DNA of 32,000 bases from Candidatus Methanoperedens sp. (GTDB taxonomy: Archaea > Halobacteriota > Methanosarcinia > Methanosarcinales > Methanoperedenaceae), in assembly GCA_026552855.1 (NCBI GenBank), contig JAPMTX010000164.1, positions 1,216 to 33,215 of the forward strand, read 5' to 3'. The notes beneath the pieces were generated by a model, which was given only the letters and a program-made list of their open reading frames with translations, was not told the origin of the DNA and did not search any database. Shown here one piece after another: positions 20,515 to 32,000 of this stretch (within the stretch, counting starts at the first letter, position 1; every line of letters starts with the position of its first letter). Position numbers and translations under genes: made by a program.

Positions 20515-20584
20515 GATGTTTCTATTCTTAGCCGAATCTACATAAATAATTATTCTCTTCCATCCGGGGTTGAAAAATGTTTAT

Positions 20585-21028
20585 ATGCCACAGCGCTTAT
20601 TACATTTCATGAAACAATTCGTCAAAAATACACTGGTTATCATATTTGTTATCGCTGTGCTTCTGCTGAGTTTCTATTATCTTGGCGGGCTAAAGCAGGC
20701 ATCTGTCCTGAAAGTCCAGGTAAAGGTAAGTGGCAACCAGAGCAGTGCAACCATAGACAATATCACAGCGCATGTAGAGCAGGTAAGTAAAGTAAGTGAA
20801 CCAAAAGGCACTTTACTGGTAACACCGGGTGTAACAGTAGTAGTTATGCAGAACATGGAGATGATAGGGGAATGGACTTCAGTTCCCTTTAATGGAAGCG
20901 GTACTTACAGCCTGGCAGTCGGACTGAACAGGTACATAGGGCCCGGAGAGACTGTGCGGGTTATAGCGCGAGTGATGAATGAAAAGGCTGAGAATATGGA
21001 TGTACGCTCACAGGAAACGAGAATATAA
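20585..21028 (+). CDS. Small membrane-anchored beta-rich hypothetical protein (paralogue of 1012..1476)
   Basis: One TM helix is followed by LKQASVLKVQVKV...GTYSLAVG...GETVRVIARV, which aligns by eye with LMKPALVLKVSTNI...GVYTLQVF...GDVLILPIRI. The start is ambiguous (TTG 20570, ATG 20585 or ATG 20609). Confidence 0.55.
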   Translation: MPQRLLHFMKQFVKNTLVIIFVIAVLLLSFYYLGGLKQASVLKVQVKVSGNQSSATIDNITAHVEQVSKVSEPKGTLLVTPGVTVVVMQNMEMIGEWTSVPFNGSGTYSLAVGLNRYIGPGETVRVIARVMNEKAENMDVRSQETRI

Positions 21029-21034
21029 AAAAAT

Positions 21035-21060
21035 CTCAACCGGTTCCACTGCCGGCTGAG
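21035..21060. terminator. Imperfect hairpin between convergent genes (possible bidirectional terminator)
   Basis: ctcaaccgg / loop ttccactg / ccggctgag forms 9 bp with one mismatch, flanked by A/T runs. Confidence 0.3.
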
Positions 21061-21073
21061 GTTGGTTTAATAA

Positions 21074-21754
21074 TTACGGATTCGTTCCATCCGCTGTCAC
21101 ATTACCACCCTTGGTATGTGTCTCATTATAGCTGTTGTTGGCTGAGATATGGATGGTGTATAAACCGCTGGTGTTCTCATAGACTAATAGATCCATGCCT
21201 ACAGATCTTCTCCAGGTTGCATTGATGTTGGTGTGGGTATGGCAGCCTACGCATGCTTCATTTGCGCCTTTCAGAATCGTTCCGTTGTTTTTAGCACCGG
21301 CTAACGCAGAGGTATTGGTAACACTCTCATTGTAGAACGGTCCATGAGCTTCATTAACATTCAGCAGCTCACCCGGAACTCCTGTATGGCATCCTGCGCA
21401 TTCCATTGTCACTGCTGCATGGGCACCCTTTTCTGCTACGTTCTGAGAAAAATTACCGCTGTAATCACGTGTCCCGTTGGAAAACTTGGCTATCGGTATG
21501 CTGTCTATGGTACCGGTTCTGTGACAACCTTTACATTCTTTAAGTGCAGGAGTATTGACATGCGCTGTAGAAATGCCGTACTGACCTGAGGCAGAGCTCA
21601 TTTCATCATAGATATCCTGATGGCATTTTTCACACCTTACACTTGTTCCGTTGTCGAAAGTATGCTGTCCTGCAAAGAGCGATAATGAGTTTGGCATTGC
21701 GAACAGCCCCACTGCCGCCACTGCGACAGTTAGCAAAAATATTTTACTGTTCAT
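21074..21754 (-). CDS. Tetraheme c-type cytochrome, 'LFAGQH' family (226 aa)
   Basis: Four CxxCH motifs (CEKCH, CKGCH, CAGCH, CVGCH). The N-terminus is MNSKIFLLTVAVAAVGLFAMPNSLSLFAGQH. An AGGAGG SD lies 7 nt upstream. Confidence 0.85.
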   Translation of the reverse strand: MNSKIFLLTVAVAAVGLFAMPNSLSLFAGQHTFDNGTSVRCEKCHQDIYDEMSSASGQYGISTAHVNTPALKECKGCHRTGTIDSIPIAKFSNGTRDYSGNFSQNVAEKGAHAAVTMECAGCHTGVPGELLNVNEAHGPFYNESVTNTSALAGAKNNGTILKGANEACVGCHTHTNINATWRRSVGMDLLVYENTSGLYTIHISANNSYNETHTKGGNVTADGTNP

Positions 21755-21949
21755 GATATTTCCTCCTTACCTATCTATCATAAATTTATTAAGACAAGAT
21801 ATAATCTAACGTAATTATAATTGTATTTTGTATGGTATATATCTTACTATCTATTCCTCTGAAGCCCTTGGATTGATGCATCTTACATCCTGTAAACATT
21901 AACTGAGTTACAGTTGCATACTTAAATCAGTAACTACTAATCAAAGGAT

Positions 21950-22954
21950 ATGAAAATATTGCTGATCCCTGCACTTCTGCTCGTCATTGCATCAGCGTAT
22001 ATTTCCTCGGTTGTATTCGGCAGTCTTGACGACCCGCTCTACTGTGCCAGGTGCCACGTATCTAATTATAAGTCTTACATTTCCCCGCCTAACAATTCGG
22101 ACATGCCAGCCCATAATAAAACAGGCATTACCTGCATAGAGTGCCATTCTTCTCCAGGATTCCAGTCAAGTCTGGCTGCTAAAAAGTTCCTCATAAATAT
22201 CCAGTTCATAAACTACTCACTCCCTGTGCTTAACAGGCTTTTGTCCTCAAATTTTACATTGAACCAGAGTGTTAATGCCTCAGATTTTGCCATACTGAAA
22301 GCCAACTGCACAAAATGCCATAATGTTAAAAAGATAACCTCATTTAAGTTCAACCATTCCAATACTTCCTCCTGTGAAGGCTGCCATATCATGCACAAAG
22401 AGATGCCAACAAAGCCCGATACGAGCTTCTGGAAGCGCATGGGCGAGGGAGGGCACAGGAACAGGACATGCGGAGATTGCCATGGAACCGACCCTACGAG
22501 ACTGGAAGATCTTCCACAGTGCACCAAATGCCATAAGCCCCACTTAAAGGATTCACTGTGGGACAGGAGCATCTGCCTCGGCTGCCACAGCGACCCGCAT
22601 CTTCCTGTCAGGGATGCCGTTTTCAAGGACACCCTGACAAAAGAGATGTGCGCTGCCTGCCATATTGATGTATACAACAACCTCACGATACGCAACAGCA
22701 AACATAACCAGAACGTACCCGCCTGCATCAACTGCCATCCCAAACACAGGCAGGCAGAGGCTTGTATAAAATGTCATAAACCCCACGGACCTCCTCATAA
22801 AGGCAGTAGTTGTAACAGTTGCCACAAATACGTCAGCGTATGCACCGACTGCCATACCAATCCGCATGACCCGCTAAACGGTCTTCCTACAATATCTGAT
22901 GAAGGACAGTGGGAAGAATTCGCAAAGCAGGTAAGAGACAGGAAAACGGGTTAA
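21950..22954 (+). CDS. Membrane-anchored 12-heme cytochrome with NapC/NirT/NrfH-like N-terminal module
   Basis: Twelve CxxCH motifs. A single N-terminal TM helix is followed by YCARCHVSNYKSY...H.K.GI.CIECH....F......K. This matches the NapC-type pattern C..CH.M...Y..Y..S.H......V.C.DCH..H.F...... Several CxxCHxPH doublets follow. Confidence 0.8.
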   Translation: MKILLIPALLLVIASAYISSVVFGSLDDPLYCARCHVSNYKSYISPPNNSDMPAHNKTGITCIECHSSPGFQSSLAAKKFLINIQFINYSLPVLNRLLSSNFTLNQSVNASDFAILKANCTKCHNVKKITSFKFNHSNTSSCEGCHIMHKEMPTKPDTSFWKRMGEGGHRNRTCGDCHGTDPTRLEDLPQCTKCHKPHLKDSLWDRSICLGCHSDPHLPVRDAVFKDTLTKEMCAACHIDVYNNLTIRNSKHNQNVPACINCHPKHRQAEACIKCHKPHGPPHKGSSCNSCHKYVSVCTDCHTNPHDPLNGLPTISDEGQWEEFAKQVRDRKTG

Positions 22955-23733
22955 TTATATCTCCTTTTTACAGGACTGCTGTCCGTATGATTATACGGCG
23001 GCGGAGGGATTATCGTGACGCTGACAGCCGTTCCTGTATGGCACCCTTCGCATGCCCAGTGCCCTTTTGAAATGCTTTCGCCGTATATGTTGCCCGGCGT
23101 CTGGTTGAACGCCATAATTGCCGCATAACGTGAGGATTGGTTGCTCGTCTCCAGGTAGTATGGCTGGTGGATATTCGCCTGGCTCAGGTTATGCCCTGCT
23201 GCTGTAGTATCCGGCGCGGTCTTACCGAAGAGCAGCGGATTGTTATAAATGTGATTCCTGTTACCATGGCACCTGTCATCATCGCACCCTCTTATCACTA
23301 TCCCCGTATGGTCTGTTGCACCAGCAAGAGATGCATTATGACATAGCATGCATATCTCAGCCCCATCTATTATGCCGTTATTATTCCTGTCAAGGCTGAA
23401 ATTCCGAAGCTGTGATCCATCCTTCCATGCTTTTTGGGTTGAATTCCATGTCCAGTTTGTCCCATCGTATGCTGTTATAACCCCGGCAGAATAATCTATG
23501 CCCCCAAGGGAAAGGTATGTAGTATAATTAGTATTACCCGCCGCATCCCTGTGTTTTTCATAAACATACCCGCTTGTTTCAATCTCAGCCAGTATATCGG
23601 AGTGGCACTTCTCGCACTCTATTCCCATCCCGCTGTAGTACGTATGCTGACCTGCGAACAATGCTACCGTCCTGGGCATTGCATAGAAGCTGACAGCCAT
23701 AAAAGCCAGGAATAATATTATTTTCTTGTTCAT
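22951..23733 (-). CDS. c-type cytochrome, 'LFAGQH' family (260 aa; 3 CxxCH plus 1 CX4CH) with an EF-hand-like loop
   Basis: Heme motifs are CEKCH, CMLCH, CDDDRCH and CEGCH. The N-terminus is MNKKIILFLAFMAVSFYAMPRTVALFAGQH. DRNNNGIIDGAEI lies immediately before CMLCH. A GAGGTG SD is present. Confidence 0.8.
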   Translation of the reverse strand: MNKKIILFLAFMAVSFYAMPRTVALFAGQHTYYSGMGIECEKCHSDILAEIETSGYVYEKHRDAAGNTNYTTYLSLGGIDYSAGVITAYDGTNWTWNSTQKAWKDGSQLRNFSLDRNNNGIIDGAEICMLCHNASLAGATDHTGIVIRGCDDDRCHGNRNHIYNNPLLFGKTAPDTTAAGHNLSQANIHQPYYLETSNQSSRYAAIMAFNQTPGNIYGESISKGHWACEGCHTGTAVSVTIIPPPPYNHTDSSPVKRRYN

Positions 23734-23740
23734 CTACACC

Positions 23741-24184
23741 TCATGAACCATTAAAATACTGTCTTGCCCTGTCATACACCTTGGCTTTGTTCCCTTTCGC
23801 AATAATATAATGTGCGGACTGGTTAATCCCGCTTATACTCCCGATATTATCATCCTGGTGTATAATTATGTTGTTAGTATCTATAGAGTAGTTAGTGTGG
23901 CAGTTGGTGCAGTAGATCTGCTTGGTAAGATTATGAGCTAAATTAATATTATAAAGCTCGGATGTGTTAGGATTGTAACCGTGGCATATGCATCCTGCAT
24001 TGCGATGGACGCTTGTATTCACAAAAGATACTTTATCCGGGTGGCATTTGGTACAGAACTCAGGCGCTGTGGTCTTATTCTCATAGACCGTATGCCCCCC
24101 TGAGAAAACAGCATAGGTTTTAAAAGTGGAGACCAGGAAAAGTGCCCCGAAGATTGCAAATATCAATAATATTCTCTTGTCCAT
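23741..24184 (-). CDS. Small diheme c-type cytochrome, divergent 'LFAGQH' family member (147 aa)
   Basis: Two CxxCH motifs (CTKCH, CTNCH). The N-terminus is MDKRILLIFAIFGALFLVSTFKTYAVFSGGH. The gene starts 4 nt after the stop of the 1070-aa gene. Confidence 0.7.
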   Translation of the reverse strand: MDKRILLIFAIFGALFLVSTFKTYAVFSGGHTVYENKTTAPEFCTKCHPDKVSFVNTSVHRNAGCICHGYNPNTSELYNINLAHNLTKQIYCTNCHTNYSIDTNNIIIHQDDNIGSISGINQSAHYIIAKGNKAKVYDRARQYFNGS

Positions 24185-24188
24185 TTGA

Positions 24189-27100
24189 TCACCACGATGA
24201 ATAGTTTTTATCAGGATACGTATGGCAGTAGTTGCAATCTACCGGTTTGTTAAATCCATATGTGGCAATAGCCTTATTATATAAATTCCGGTCATGGCAT
24301 ATTGTACAGTCTGTAATATCTACAACTGATACCCCTCCGACTTTATAATTGCCAGGGTCTCCAGTTATGTTGTGCCTTTCCCGCAGGTTGTTCGGGTCCA
24401 GAACAGCATGGCAGTCCTCACAGGCTTTTCTTGCGCCGATATTGTTATGCCCCCCGGTATGGCAGCTCCTGCAGATGACATTACCGTGAGGACTTTCATT
24501 GAACATGGCGGAATTAACGAATCTCGCAGGAGCTGTCGGACTCCCGCTGCTGTTCATAACAGGATAGGAGAAGTGGCAGTCTTTGCAGTCCCTGGCTGTA
24601 ATATTATGTAAAAAGGCATCCATTGTCCCGTTACCCGGACCGATGCTGTGGCAGGTTTTACATGTAGAATCGTTGTAATCCGGCGTCAGGTTATGGTAGT
24701 AGAAACCTGGCATGGTATTTACCGCATAAGTCCCGTTCGTGATCTCAGGAGGAACTGGAAGGTTTGCCGATATAAATGTTGATGTCATATCTTCGTAACT
24801 CTTTCCTCCGTTCGAATATCCCCGGTAGTGGCAGCCTGCACACCAGTTGCTTGTATTTGTAATACTTGAATTGACTATATTGTTCCCTCTCCAGTTCCCG
24901 GGTCTGCCGAGAGCCGCTGCCTTATGCCTGGTATCATTGTGGCAGTAAATACAGGCTGTAATCTCTGAAGTGTTGTCCCAGTAGCCTGATGAGTTCCAGC
25001 GCGTTCCGTTGGAGAGATTGTCGCTGTGGTGCATTGGAGACGGTATCTTTGGAGGTGCCCTTGACAGGTTCGGATAAAACGCAGGGTCCTGGTGGCAGTT
25101 AATGCAGTTAACACCCGTGGAATTGCTTGTACTGTAATTCACATCTGACTGGACTGACTGGAGGTATTTAACAGGGTGGATATCCCCACTGCTGTTAAGA
25201 TGGCATTCCGTACAATTCACCGAATTATTGTGCTTCTGCCTGATGCCGGTAACCATTCCTGAGTAATTCGTTCCTCCGGTGTCGTTGCTGCCATGGCATG
25301 ACAGGCAGAATGTTGAGTTGGGAAGAGTAAGTGCAGGCTTGGTAAGAGTGGAGTTGTGTATCCAGCCTGAGTTGTGGCACCTGATACATCCCGGATTTGA
25401 GTTATTATAGCGCAGGCTGTGGTTAGAGATGTTACTGTTGTTTGAGTCCATCATTGCTACAGCGAACGCCGTGCTGGTATTTTTATGGCAGTATGCGCAG
25501 TCGGCAGCATTCCCCTGCCTGACCTGCGGGTCAGGAGCCCTGCTTCTGCCGTAGTGTGAGGGAAGTGAAAAGTTTGTACCATAATTATCGCCTGTATAAT
25601 CCACTTTCATCTCGGTCAGGTTGTGGCACATTATACATGAGGAAGAATTGTCAGAAGCATTTAAGGCTGCCTTTATACTGGTCCCGTTTATGAAATGCTG
25701 GCTCACGTTCGGGGCATTGCTGACATTACCATACGGTTTGCCTGTACCGTTGTGGCAGTCATAGCACTTATACGGGTTGCTGAACCGGCTGCCCATACTG
25801 TCGTTAGCCGGCTGGCTTCCGGCGGAATCATGGCATCCCCAGCATTTCTTGTTCTCGGCTGGTACCCCTGTTGAATTAGTCGCATTCCTGTTCAGGTTGG
25901 CATGGATAGCGCCGCTTGAGTTCATGGCTGAACTATTTACCTGGTGAAATGCAGACTTTCCTGTATTATGACAGTCTATGCAGTTCGGACCCGCAACGAA
26001 GGTTACATTATGCGGGTCACTCCCATGACAGGTTGTGCATTGCGTCCCCATATTATGAGTTATGCCTGAGTGGCAGGTCCTGCATACTGTAGCATCCAGG
26101 GTGTAGAGGGATTTTACATCGTGCTCCCGGTTATGGCACAGACCGCAGGCTACTGTTTTCCGGGTAGAATGCGTCGTGTTTTCGATGGAATCGGGAATGG
26201 TTGTATTGTTCAGGATTGATCCTGGTCTCGGATGGCAGGTTATACAATTCGGTTTAGTTATCAGACTGGTCAGGTTATTATGGCAGTCATTACATGTCGC
26301 GTTCAAATAATGTCTATCCAGACCGTAGCGCGGGGATAGGGCGTTTTGACCGGTCGTAATATCGCCGTGGCAGTTCACACATGCAAGAGCCGCATTTCCA
26401 CCTGACGAAGTTCTGTGGCAGTTGTTGCATTGTCCTGCCCGTGGATGCGCTACCCAATCGGGATAATGGAGACTATGGCAGTCCCCGCATTGAAGTGTTG
26501 AGGTAATGAAATTACCCGGATCAGGGTGTTCCACATATATCTGTGTGGTATCGAAGTGCTTTGGATGAACATATCCTGATTCGAATGTAGAAGGATAATT
26601 GTCTCCACCAGCACTGTGGCAGTTAGCGCAGCCCCATCTCAAGACGCTGAACTCTCCTGCAATATTGGGATAATCTGTTATTCTTATCACGTATCCGCCT
26701 TCATCCAGATAATCAGGCAGAACGAAGTCACCTGAATAAGGACCTGCACCGCTCAGGTTCGTTCTTCCTATCTCGCCGCCTGTGCTGTTGTAGATAACAA
26801 CTTCCAGCGAGAGACCCTGAACATAGCGTCCGCTAACGTTATTAAGAATTGCAGTGGATATGTTTACAGTCCTGAAGTTAGCAGGCGAGCCTGTCCATCC
26901 TGGTGGACTTACCATGTACTCCGAGGGACTTGTCCATACACCTGGTCTGAGAGTTACGAGAACGCTCGCTGGCACCGAATCATTGGCATTTGTAAAGTTC
27001 CAGCTCTCAGGCTTATAGTAGTAAGTGGTGTTTGCGGATAGACCTGACAACCTGATGCTCACATTGAATGTATTATTGTTCCAGATGCTCCAGCTCCCGT

Positions 27101-27401
27101 TCGTCAGATTATTGATATCTGTTTCACTCATACCATAATATACTCTGCTACTGCCGGGGATGTTGGTATCCCAGAAAATAAAAGAGCCGCTGGAAGTGGG
27201 TCCAGAGTTTGTCAGATTAGAAATGGATGGAGAAAAATAAGGGTTGGATGCGGCATTTACTCCATTTGTACCTGAATTGAAAAAAGGCGAGCCGGCGAGT
27301 ACCAGAAGAAGTACGGTTATGCCGGTAAGAAAACGGGCTGGAAGTTTTCCTCTATCAGAGGCAGCCATCAGCTTTATCAAATGCGAACCTGTCCTATCCA
27401 T
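24189..27401 (-). CDS. Giant secreted 26-heme cytochrome (1070 aa), mosaic of modules shared with the 569-aa and 2009-aa proteins
   Basis: I counted 26 CxxCH motifs by hand. The N-terminal ~476 aa are near-identical in stretches to the 569-aa protein. The middle ~450 aa align with the 12-heme module of the 2009-aa protein. The last four heme motifs form a unique C-terminal segment. Confidence 0.9.
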   Translation of the reverse strand: MDRTGSHLIKLMAASDRGKLPARFLTGITVLLLVLAGSPFFNSGTNGVNAASNPYFSPSISNLTNSGPTSSGSFIFWDTNIPGSSRVYYGMSETDINNLTNGSWSIWNNNTFNVSIRLSGLSANTTYYYKPESWNFTNANDSVPASVLVTLRPGVWTSPSEYMVSPPGWTGSPANFRTVNISTAILNNVSGRYVQGLSLEVVIYNSTGGEIGRTNLSGAGPYSGDFVLPDYLDEGGYVIRITDYPNIAGEFSVLRWGCANCHSAGGDNYPSTFESGYVHPKHFDTTQIYVEHPDPGNFITSTLQCGDCHSLHYPDWVAHPRAGQCNNCHRTSSGGNAALACVNCHGDITTGQNALSPRYGLDRHYLNATCNDCHNNLTSLITKPNCITCHPRPGSILNNTTIPDSIENTTHSTRKTVACGLCHNREHDVKSLYTLDATVCRTCHSGITHNMGTQCTTCHGSDPHNVTFVAGPNCIDCHNTGKSAFHQVNSSAMNSSGAIHANLNRNATNSTGVPAENKKCWGCHDSAGSQPANDSMGSRFSNPYKCYDCHNGTGKPYGNVSNAPNVSQHFINGTSIKAALNASDNSSSCIMCHNLTEMKVDYTGDNYGTNFSLPSHYGRSRAPDPQVRQGNAADCAYCHKNTSTAFAVAMMDSNNSNISNHSLRYNNSNPGCIRCHNSGWIHNSTLTKPALTLPNSTFCLSCHGSNDTGGTNYSGMVTGIRQKHNNSVNCTECHLNSSGDIHPVKYLQSVQSDVNYSTSNSTGVNCINCHQDPAFYPNLSRAPPKIPSPMHHSDNLSNGTRWNSSGYWDNTSEITACIYCHNDTRHKAAALGRPGNWRGNNIVNSSITNTSNWCAGCHYRGYSNGGKSYEDMTSTFISANLPVPPEITNGTYAVNTMPGFYYHNLTPDYNDSTCKTCHSIGPGNGTMDAFLHNITARDCKDCHFSYPVMNSSGSPTAPARFVNSAMFNESPHGNVICRSCHTGGHNNIGARKACEDCHAVLDPNNLRERHNITGDPGNYKVGGVSVVDITDCTICHDRNLYNKAIATYGFNKPVDCNYCHTYPDKNYSSW
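25970..27401. repeat. Right arm of the ~1.4-kb inverted repeat (partner 4512..5960)
   Basis: See the left arm. Identity is 95-98% in the spot-checked stretches, interrupted by a divergent patch around heme motifs 2-3. Confidence 0.8.
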
Positions 27402-31286: not shown

Positions 31287-32000
31287 TTACTTTGCTGGGA
31301 TAACGAAGGCTCTCTCACCGGCGCAGCGGTCCCACTCTCTGAGTGCAGCCTTACCGAAGCATCCTCTTGGATCCGCGAAGTCGAAGTTGACTAACTCATC
31401 TGCGAAGCAGGCTTTGACCAGCGGGTTCACAACGAATGCATCCTTCTTTCCGGCGTGTGCTGCCTGAACTACTGCGGTGTATCCACCCTGATGTCCTACG
31501 TTCATTGCGTAGTTGGGGTAGTTAGCACCTCTGCACTCGCCTATGCAGCCCTCATCAGAGCCGAGCGAGAACACGTTGGTTGCGCCGCACTGATCCTGCA
31601 AGTCATACCCGTAGAATCCGAGTCTTCCGTGACCCTCTTTGTGGAGGTACATGCTCAGATACCATGCTGCTAGACCGGCATTGCTGTGTCCGGTTGCCAG
31701 AGCTGTTGCACCGCCTGCTGCCATTGCTACGGCTGTTGCTCTCAGTGAACCACCGAAATGGTCTTCCAGTGTTGTCGGGTACTTCTCGTATGCTTCAAGA
31801 CTGTACAATGTTGATTCTGTAGCGATATCTTTTACAGTTTCAATGGTGGCTTTTGCTTTGCTAAATCCACCGTACTTCTTAATTGCATAGTCAGTGCCCC
31901 AGTACAGGAAGTCGTCAAGGATATCGTTGCAGTATGCTGGTAATGCATACATTGTGAATCCGACGCCGCCTGACATGTAGCCGCCGAGCCATATCTGGTC
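31287..32000 (-). CDS. mcrA: Methyl-coenzyme M reductase alpha subunit, C-terminal ~237 aa (gene continues beyond the window)
   Basis: Diagnostic McrA blocks are present: (DQIWLGG)[57 protein letters not shown], and [10 protein letters not shown] at the C-terminus. The reading frame stays open to position 32000. Confidence 0.95.

Follow-up and report, generated by a model that had tools for sequence, protein, structure and literature searches.

A 12-heme cytochrome gene of Candidatus Methanoperedens

The DNA analysed here, referred to as the window, is a stretch of 32,000 nucleotides from a Candidatus Methanoperedens genome of 3.4 Mb in 211 contigs (assembly GCA_026552855.1, contig JAPMTX010000164.1). 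The C-terminal domain of McrA, at positions 31287-32000, closes the window and, together with the origin of the homologues described below, points to a Methanoperedens-like archaeon. Within the window, a plus-strand gene at 21950..22954 encodes a 12-heme c-type cytochrome, P0001, which, judged from profile alignments, is a diverged and extended NapC/NrfH-type cytochrome composed of a four-heme NrfH-derived head and an eight-heme MtrA/NrfB-like tail. Its parts are listed below with the basis of each in brackets; AF2 stands for AlphaFold2.

21950..22954, plus strand: gene of the 12-heme c-type cytochrome P0001 (open reading frame, translation, 58 homologous clusters, conserved CxxCH motifs)
21956..22024, plus strand: N-terminal hydrophobic helix, residues 3-25, membrane anchor or cleaved signal peptide (uncharged run, AF2 helix)
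22028..22405, plus strand: head, hemes 1-4, residues 27-152, putative diverged NrfH/NapC-type tetraheme module (hhalign, TIGR03153, bridging homologue L046)
22043..22063, plus strand: heme-1 motif CARCH followed by V-S, with Ser38 at the position of the NrfH CxxCHxM methionine (alignment)
22181..22186, plus strand: K78-K79, 12 and 13 residues past the heme-2 histidine, putative equivalent of NrfH Lys82, CymA Lys91 and NapC Lys103 (hhalign)
22406..22879, plus strand: tail, hemes 5-12, residues 153-310, MtrA/NrfB/DmsE-like heme wire (one conserved distal histidine per heme, PDB profile matches)
22901..22948, plus strand: C-terminal charged amphipathic helix, residues 318-333 (AF2 helix at 318-333; consensus ...QW.EYAKQ.GKK)

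The reading frame opens with an ATG preceded by a GGA-rich stretch and specifies 334 amino acids, with CxxCH motifs starting at residues 32, 62, 120, 142, 174, 191, 209, 234, 259, 272, 288 and 298, which bears out the twelve hemes counted in an earlier note on this DNA. That note had also described a 4-nt overlap with the convergent minus-strand gene 22951..23733, and the overlap is real because both stop codons, the plus-strand TAA at 22952-22954 and its minus-strand counterpart, fall within the shared palindrome TTAA at 22951-22954. The statement that this is the only plus-strand gene in a block of minus-strand cytochrome genes was too broad, as a non-cytochrome gene at 20570..21028 (plus) sits just upstream; in corrected form, 21950..22954 is the sole plus-strand cytochrome gene of the block.

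A homologue search with P0001 returned 58 clusters. Nearly all belong to Ca. Methanoperedens; their identities range over 26-85%, and most are 50-85% identical with lengths of 319-338 amino acids. Across the 55 aligned homologues on which all family conservation counts are based, 10 of the 12 heme motifs are invariant and the other two, of hemes 3 and 4, show conservation of 90% or more; the gene is thus a genuine and conserved one. The family is also small: among 1.84 billion representatives, searched exhaustively with phmmer, no more than 120 proteins reach E <= 1e-3, and 15 of these reach E <= 1e-30. Tandem paralogues of the 12-heme gene, at about 40% identity, are present in several genomes. 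In the duplicates at L022 and L032-L035, one copy is about 55% and the other about 38% identical to P0001, and tandem copies lie 25-35 bp apart where gene calls are clean.

Relationship of the head to NrfH

The resemblance of the head to quinol dehydrogenases was examined against a canonical reference, namely four genes from other Methanoperedens genomes (L008-L011) that encode proteins of 142-170 amino acids with a CxxCHVM motif and adjoin nrfA-like genes. Aligned with this NrfH profile by hhalign, the 12-heme family profile reached a probability of 96.6% (E 5.5e-10) over 108 columns that take in all four hemes, begin a little ahead of heme 1 and end at the C-terminal histidine of NrfH, and P0001 alone reached 95.5% over 81 columns. 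A MAFFT alignment of the head agrees with hhalign on the four collinear hemes. Four control alignments against the same NrfH profile gave the following values.

226-amino-acid neighbour: 47%, 32 columns
P0001's own tail: 53%, 27 columns
334-amino-acid cytochrome (window 48-1049): 78%, 33 columns
569-amino-acid cytochrome (window 4512-6218): 92.7%, 38 columns

The control cytochromes align only two hemes with NrfH, and the signal specific to the family is the collinear extent of four hemes placed directly behind the N-terminal helix. These observations were further strengthened by relatives that bridge the family to canonical NrfH: the divergent clade P0053-56 and the protein L046 keep a CxxCH(E/V)M motif. 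L046, a 321-amino-acid 12-heme protein from another family of the same phylum with CHVM at heme 1, gives a full-length match to P0001 (E 6e-28) and one of 106 columns to NrfH. The TIGR03153 model matches 53 of the 55 members (best E 1.1e-12), and in a six-frame genome scan its matches span model positions 5-134 of 138; TIGR02161 matches a single member. Taken together, the collinear hemes and the bridging homologues argue that the head very probably descends from an NrfH/NapC-type module.

Several results weigh against this kinship. P0001 scores 19.1 bits with PF03264 and 32.7 bits with TIGR03153, under the respective cut-offs of 24.1 (gathering) and 134.2, and the whole family falls below the curated NapC/NirT/NrfH cut-offs (PF03264, TIGR03153, TIGR02161). 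Paired CxxCH motifs push the hhalign probability up, as the control range of 47-93% illustrates, and this value was rejected as evidence on its own, with the aligned extent and the bridging homologues used in its place. Foldseek searches of the PDB with heme-free AF2 models, full length (predicted local distance difference test, pLDDT, 73.8) and head only (pLDDT 78.4; predicted template modelling score, pTM, 0.70), yielded neither NrfH nor any other match. Since hemes are missing from the models and multiheme folds consist mostly of loops, we count this null result as uninformative, though it lends the kinship no support. Likewise, single-sequence and profile searches of PDB sequences never retrieved NrfH, the only matches being MtrA, UndA, NrfB and GSU1996, for the tail. 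Scores of single proteins with the Pfam NNT and TIGR03153 models were dropped as evidence altogether, given that unrelated cytochromes of the window score similarly or better: a 2009-amino-acid cytochrome reaches 38 bits internally with PF03264, and the 226-amino-acid neighbour matches TIGR03153 at E 1.6e-6.

This lack of specificity, together with control probabilities of up to 92.7% and the silence of Foldseek, would suit an explanation in which the NrfH likeness is convergent or motif-driven and P0001 is simply another multiheme cytochrome of the MtrA/NrfB/c7 kind, secreted by way of a signal peptide. We regard this explanation as quite unlikely, given that the controls align 27-38 columns and two hemes, as against 108 columns for the family, which start at heme 1, right after the helix, and reach as far as the C-terminus of NrfH; that the aligned lysine is conserved; and that relatives which keep CHxM bridge the gap to canonical NrfH. 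The NapC/NirT/NrfH-like head proposed in the earlier note therefore stands in its four collinear hemes, its conserved lysine and the eight hemes added to it, and has to be qualified in that it lies below the curated cut-offs and lacks the heme-1 methionine.

Compared with NrfH (Desulfovibrio vulgaris 2J7A and L008-L011), P0001 shares an N-terminal hydrophobic helix with heme 1 within about 10 residues, four collinear hemes, a lysine 12 residues after the heme-2 histidine and a conserved histidine after heme 4. It differs in size (334 amino acids and 12 hemes, against about 140-170 amino acids and 4 hemes), in the greater length of the helix that follows heme 2 (residues 71-97 of the AF2 model) and in an 8-residue insert with a conserved NxS sequon, found in the family between heme 1 and H55. 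P0001 does not belong to NrfH proper (the TIGR03153 equivalog), as it lacks the heme-1 methionine and no NrfA partner gene adjoins the family in any neighbourhood examined. The NapC-like spacing pattern described earlier needs two small corrections: 11 residues, not 13, separate ...KSY from H55, and 6, not 7, separate ...PGF from K78.

Features of a putative quinol site

The functional hallmarks of the NapC/NrfH family are a high-spin heme 1 and a conserved lysine (NrfH Lys82, CymA Lys91, NapC Lys103), and the methionine of the CxxCHxM motif, universal in NrfH only, is dispensable in the family as a whole, being absent from CymA (ImoA study, bioRxiv 10.1101/2022.01.10.475773). Both hallmarks have a candidate counterpart in P0001. 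K78 is aligned by hhalign with the invariant lysine of Methanoperedens NrfH, and a lysine or arginine occupies the positions 12 or 13 residues past the heme-2 histidine in 49 of the 55 family members and is shifted by indels in 4 of the remaining 6. The head has three conserved histidines outside the heme motifs (55, 136 and 149) for its four hemes, which is the pattern expected if one head heme has no histidine as distal ligand; that heme is probably heme 1, as in NrfH, CymA and ImoA.

In combining a single helix with a NapC/NirT-type head that lacks the heme-1 methionine and keeps the essential lysine (CymA Lys91), P0001 is comparable to CymA of Shewanella, which it would also resemble in its proposed place at the start of an extracellular electron pathway (PMC9012536). 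The two differ in that CymA stops at four hemes and passes its electrons to separate periplasmic cytochromes, whereas P0001 fuses eight more hemes to the head, and in that the activity of CymA is demonstrated and that of P0001 predicted. Direct, CymA-like oxidation of menaquinol by P0001 is plausible on these features, with chances that we put slightly under even. The choice of quinol follows published analyses, in which the quinone of Methanoperedens is menaquinone (PMC4683180, PMC13748539). Methanophenazine, which the earlier note had named as an alternative donor, is unlikely and was rejected on these grounds.

The tail and its relatives

Residues beyond the head belong to a different kind of multiheme protein. 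With the family profile, the PDB yields MtrA (6r2q_A, whose label in the PDB table is wrong; E 1e-7), NrfB (2ozy; E 2e-6), UndA and GSU1996, all over residues of about 133-305, and the DmsE decaheme model TIGR03508 matches 52 of the 55 members at scores far under its cut-off. P0001 itself scores 30.3 bits with that model, against a cut-off of 192.2; the likeness is limited to the tail, and P0001 is not a member of the DmsE/MtrA family. Eight conserved histidines outside the motifs (169, 198, 217, 252, 266, 279, 283 and 306) are available for the eight tail hemes. With the MtrA/DmsE decahemes and the NrfB pentaheme the tail shares the CxxCH-x2-3-H spacing and one conserved distal histidine per heme, and it differs from MtrA/DmsE in having no porin partner; to our knowledge, archaea have no outer membrane. 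If MtrA is taken as the analogue, the twelve hemes of P0001 could form a wire about 10 nm long.

We also observed that cytochromes of 975-1466 amino acids (P0061, P0065-P0067, P0070) contain 9-14 repeats of a tail unit (residues ~167-293), which is therefore a building block that P0001 shares with giant cytochromes.

Genomic neighbourhood and the link to extracellular cytochrome nanowires

The surroundings of the gene were compared across 20 genome loci and two metagenome contigs. In the window, its neighbours are the following, where AvECN denotes the extracellular cytochrome nanowire (ECN) of Archaeoglobus veneficus.

20570..21028, plus strand: conserved third gene, about 145 amino acids, N-terminal transmembrane helix, no family assignment (homologue in 13 of 20 loci)
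21074..21754, minus strand: conserved partner, a 226-amino-acid 4-heme cytochrome and AvECN homologue (phmmer against PDB 8e5g_A)
21755..21949, no strand: AT-rich divergent intergenic region of 195 bp, common to the P0001 gene and the AvECN-like gene (sequence; arrangement recurs in most orthologous loci)
22951..27401, minus strand: convergent operon abutting the 3' end of the 12-heme gene, with a 1070-amino-acid 26-heme cytochrome and small cytochromes of 147 and 260 amino acids with AvECN-like N-termini (open reading frames, Pfam)

The most constant of these neighbours is the small cytochrome. The 226-amino-acid protein matches 8e5g_A nearly over its full length (residues 3-223, E 8.3e-15), 8E5G being the AvECN structure (PMC12954529), and at 14 of the 20 loci a homologue of its gene is found no more than about 2 kb away from the 12-heme gene, mostly in divergent orientation. 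Genome G058, which belongs to another family, has a 12-heme relative and an ECN-like gene about 3 kb apart. The 12-heme family itself is no full-length AvECN relative, as it matches 8e5g only weakly and in the tail (E 0.0019). ECN-like genes are far commoner, occurring in 43 of 53 Methanoperedenaceae genomes and in 62 of the 401 genomes sampled from the phylum, so the dependence is one-way: an ECN-like gene nearly always accompanies the 12-heme gene, and the reverse does not hold. An ECN homologue (ECN^Mv) has been described in 'Ca. M. vercellensis' (Wissink et al. 2026, PMC13748539) with no discussion of a NapC-like neighbour, and the physiological role and the electron donor of archaeal ECN filaments are given there as unknown.

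The link to giant cytochromes suggested in the earlier note holds in part. The convergent operon is also present at L024, L025, L038, L039, L042 and, partly, L043 (5-6 of 20 loci), next to 12-heme genes that, in the first five, are 29-74% identical to P0001, and its retention beside paralogues of only 29-39% identity argues for a recurrent functional link. It is not constant: most orthologous loci lack giant cytochromes, which were therefore rejected as constant partners, and that role falls to the AvECN-type 4-heme cytochrome. Within the operon, the 260-amino-acid protein matches the N-terminal 76 residues of AvECN (E 3.4e-7).

The small cytochromes at 21074-21754, 22951-23733 and 23741-24184 (all minus) have a common N-terminus ending in ...LFAGQHT/VFSGGHT, and this 80-residue module heads many cytochrome reading frames of about 360-460 amino acids across the Methanoperedenaceae. 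A GC-rich hairpin with a T-run at 21035-21060 (minus), between the convergent ends of 20570-21028 (plus) and 21074-21754 (minus), is a plausible terminator of the ECN-like gene. The conserved third gene, for whose product no Pfam match above cut-off was found, may encode an assembly or anchoring factor, and its TTG start at 20570 is probably too far upstream because its homologues measure 139-148 amino acids.

From the ECN association and the nature of the protein, P0001 is likely to act with an ECN-like partner in an extracellular electron pathway, as its cell-proximal component. Throughout the 20 neighbourhoods, no NrfD, cytochrome b or reductase gene was found as a conserved neighbour, and we count the absence of the first two in favour of a quinol role for the head itself. 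None of the 20 contains a reductase gene at all, which bears on a further explanation: P0001 would lie outside any extracellular pathway and serve, as NrfH does for NrfA, as membrane partner to a soluble periplasmic enzyme that reduces nitrite, arsenate, selenate or a similar substrate. Such a role is the usual one for NrfH, NapC and CymA relatives in bacteria, and canonical NrfH-NrfA pairs exist in four Methanoperedens genomes. With cytochromes and glycosylation genes as the constant neighbours of the 12-heme gene, it is very improbable here.

Membrane anchor or signal peptide

P0001 has an uncharged run from residue 3 to 26, with the first heme cysteine 5 residues further on; in most family members this run measures 20-24 residues, and AF2 places a helix at residues 5-25 with a pLDDT of 84-92. 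The segment is conserved as well as the head (56% and 57% identity to P0001 in the main clade), and the divergent clade and remote relatives have long N-terminal helices without Ala-x-Ala. These features speak for an anchor. In favour of cleavage, the N-terminus of the main clade (MKKWLI.A.LLIA.SA-YASS) combines a short charged start with a hydrophobic core of 11-12 residues and a small-x-small-Tyr motif. Weighing both sides, we lean slightly towards an uncleaved anchor. The N-terminal transmembrane anchor of the earlier note is thus confirmed as a hydrophobic helix, while its uncleaved state is less secure, because an Ala-x-Ala-Tyr sequence keeps cleavage possible, and a cleaved signal peptide was a condition under which that note would have given up its reading.

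In two remote relatives (L046:1492-2457 and L049:1477-2496), the N-terminal hydrophobic stretch ends in a lipobox-like ...IIGC or ...AIGC, which suggests lipid anchoring in place of a transmembrane helix in these lineages. The wider genome-scan match at L046 contains one TGA and one TAG; the L046 open reading frame itself reads open.

A wider set of NrfH-headed cytochromes

P0001 is one of several proteins of this general design. Methanoperedens genomes contain a radiation of NrfH-headed cytochromes with 6, 12, 15 or 16 hemes. The archaeal examples from other genomes (L012-L019, L046, L050, L053, L054) come with or without the heme-1 methionine and in some cases with a CxxxCH site at heme 1 (CGKNCH, CGTTCH); no description of this radiation was found in the Methanoperedens literature searched. 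The best-conserved NrfH-headed paralogue, of about 365-400 amino acids and about 60 bits to TIGR03153, is present in most of the 53 genomes and keeps a methionine after its CxxxCH heme-1 motif (CGKNCHIM). In the genome of the window itself, one such gene stands in an operon on contig C67:

L060:123-4734: operon of a small cytochrome, a 4Fe-4S protein (Fer4_11), NrfD, a 5-heme cytochrome and a 365-amino-acid NrfH-headed 12-heme cytochrome

Operons of this type are NrfD-type menaquinone:cytochrome c oxidoreductase clusters (Leu et al. 2020, PMC7327174). P0001 shares with the other NrfH-headed cytochromes the order of helix, NrfH head and heme tail, its match to the C67 protein being collinear and weak (E 8e-11, 21% identity). 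It is set apart by the heme-1 methionine, which those proteins keep as CGKNCHIM or CxxCHEM, and by the position of its family, which has diverged furthest and is found on its own next to ECN-like genes.

Modules with extra hemes are also known outside the genus. The Geobacter cytochrome ImcH (7 hemes) and TorC (5 hemes) are other NapC/NirT-type modules of this sort, and ImcH has been proposed as an entry point. The decaheme GAH_01256 of Geoglobus ahangari is an extended NapC/NirT-like cytochrome that has likewise been proposed as the membrane entry to metal reduction (PMC8280799). Compared by description only, these three resemble P0001 in joining extra hemes to a NapC/NirT-like module and differ from it in heme number and type of tail.

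Proposed role and its main alternative

Considered as a whole, the best explanation of these data is a tethered, menaquinol-oxidising head that feeds ECN and giant cytochromes, and we hold it tentatively, judging its chances to be slightly under even. In this scheme, the head would be tethered by an uncleaved helix at the outside of the cytoplasmic membrane and would oxidise menaquinol there in the manner of CymA, without the NrfH methionine. Electrons would travel along the 12-heme chain into the pseudoperiplasm and be handed to the divergently encoded AvECN-type 4-heme cytochrome, a probable filament subunit; in some lineages, including that of the window, they would also pass to the products of the giant-cytochrome operon that abuts the 3' end of the gene.

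A further set of observations counts on the other side. First, the heme-1 methionine is lost in 51 of the 55 members and retained only in the four of the divergent clade P0053-56, the residue two positions past the histidine being threonine, alanine or serine in 42 members. Second, a small-x-small-Tyr motif that fits a signal-peptidase site occurs in 45 of 55 (ASA-Y at residues 14-17 of P0001). Third, P0001 contains 11 NxS/T sequons, compared with 3.3 +/- 1.6 in composition-matched shuffles, and 9 of the 11 lie in the head, most of them conserved and some near the lysine-bearing helix; glycans are therefore possible close to that helix, and the sequons place the head outside the cell. The window, the loci of its two closest relatives (L024, L025) and one more distant locus (L022) have PMT_2-type glycosyltransferase genes in synteny. 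Fourth, the family is found in only 22 of 53 Methanoperedenaceae species-representative genomes (14 of the 34 high-quality ones). Genome G002, assembled in ten contigs, has no member, and only a few relatives occur beyond the Methanoperedenaceae in the 401-genome sample of the phylum; the 12-heme cytochrome is an accessory gene restricted to this family and a few relatives. Fifth, the 365-amino-acid protein of contig C67 carries a better-conserved NrfH head within an NrfD/4Fe-4S operon of the same genome. Placed beside a dedicated quinol-interacting subunit, that head weakens the step from an NrfH-like head to a stand-alone quinol dehydrogenase, and NrfH-type heads in this genus may act as acceptors for NrfCD modules instead.

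These observations are what one would expect if P0001 had lost its quinol chemistry and served as an electron relay, either released or merely tethered, that is fed by menaquinone:cytochrome c oxidoreductases of the NrfD/4Fe-4S and cytochrome b kinds and in turn feeds ECN-like and giant cytochromes. The loss of the CxxCHxM methionine and the presence of Ala-x-Ala-Tyr in the same clade, the dense sequons on the head, the accessory status of the gene and the NrfH-headed 12-heme paralogue within the C67 operon all fit such a relay, as does the fact that most Methanoperedenaceae genomes possess several other menaquinone:cytochrome c oxidoreductase clusters (PMC7327174). Against it stand the lysine or arginine of the quinol site, kept in 53 of 55 members once indels are allowed for, the one head heme still without a histidine as distal ligand, the N-terminal segment conserved as strongly as the domain behind it, and CymA, which functions without the methionine. 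We take the relay seriously as a possibility, without thinking it probable.

Significance for electron export in Methanoperedens

Parts of this picture are already known: some members of the P0001 family carry the name 'NapC/NirT family cytochrome c' in NCBI records, and for other organisms an entry-point role of extended NapC/NirT cytochromes has been proposed before. In the literature that names Methanoperedens together with NapC, NirT or NrfH (full text), only the canonical NrfAH system or unrelated topics were found, and the Methanoperedens electron-transfer literature examined does not describe the 12-heme family or its link to ECN genes. In published models for the Methanoperedenaceae, the menaquinone:cytochrome c oxidoreductases are all NrfD- or cytochrome b-based (PMC7327174).

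A link is missing in the path that takes electrons from the membrane of anaerobic methanotrophs to extracellular cytochromes or filaments. One bold and rather doubtful version of the tethered-head scheme is that P0001 is a one-polypeptide adaptor from menaquinol to nanowire, in which an anchored CymA-like head carries an eight-heme arm that would plug into the base of an AvECN-type filament or into a giant cytochrome crossing the S-layer. If true, Methanoperedens would possess an electron-export module that is self-contained and horizontally mobile and that circumvents the oxidoreductases of the NrfD and cytochrome b types. With its 334 amino acids, its recognisable quinol-dehydrogenase-type head and its ECN-tied gene, the 12-heme family is a small and tractable candidate for the missing link.

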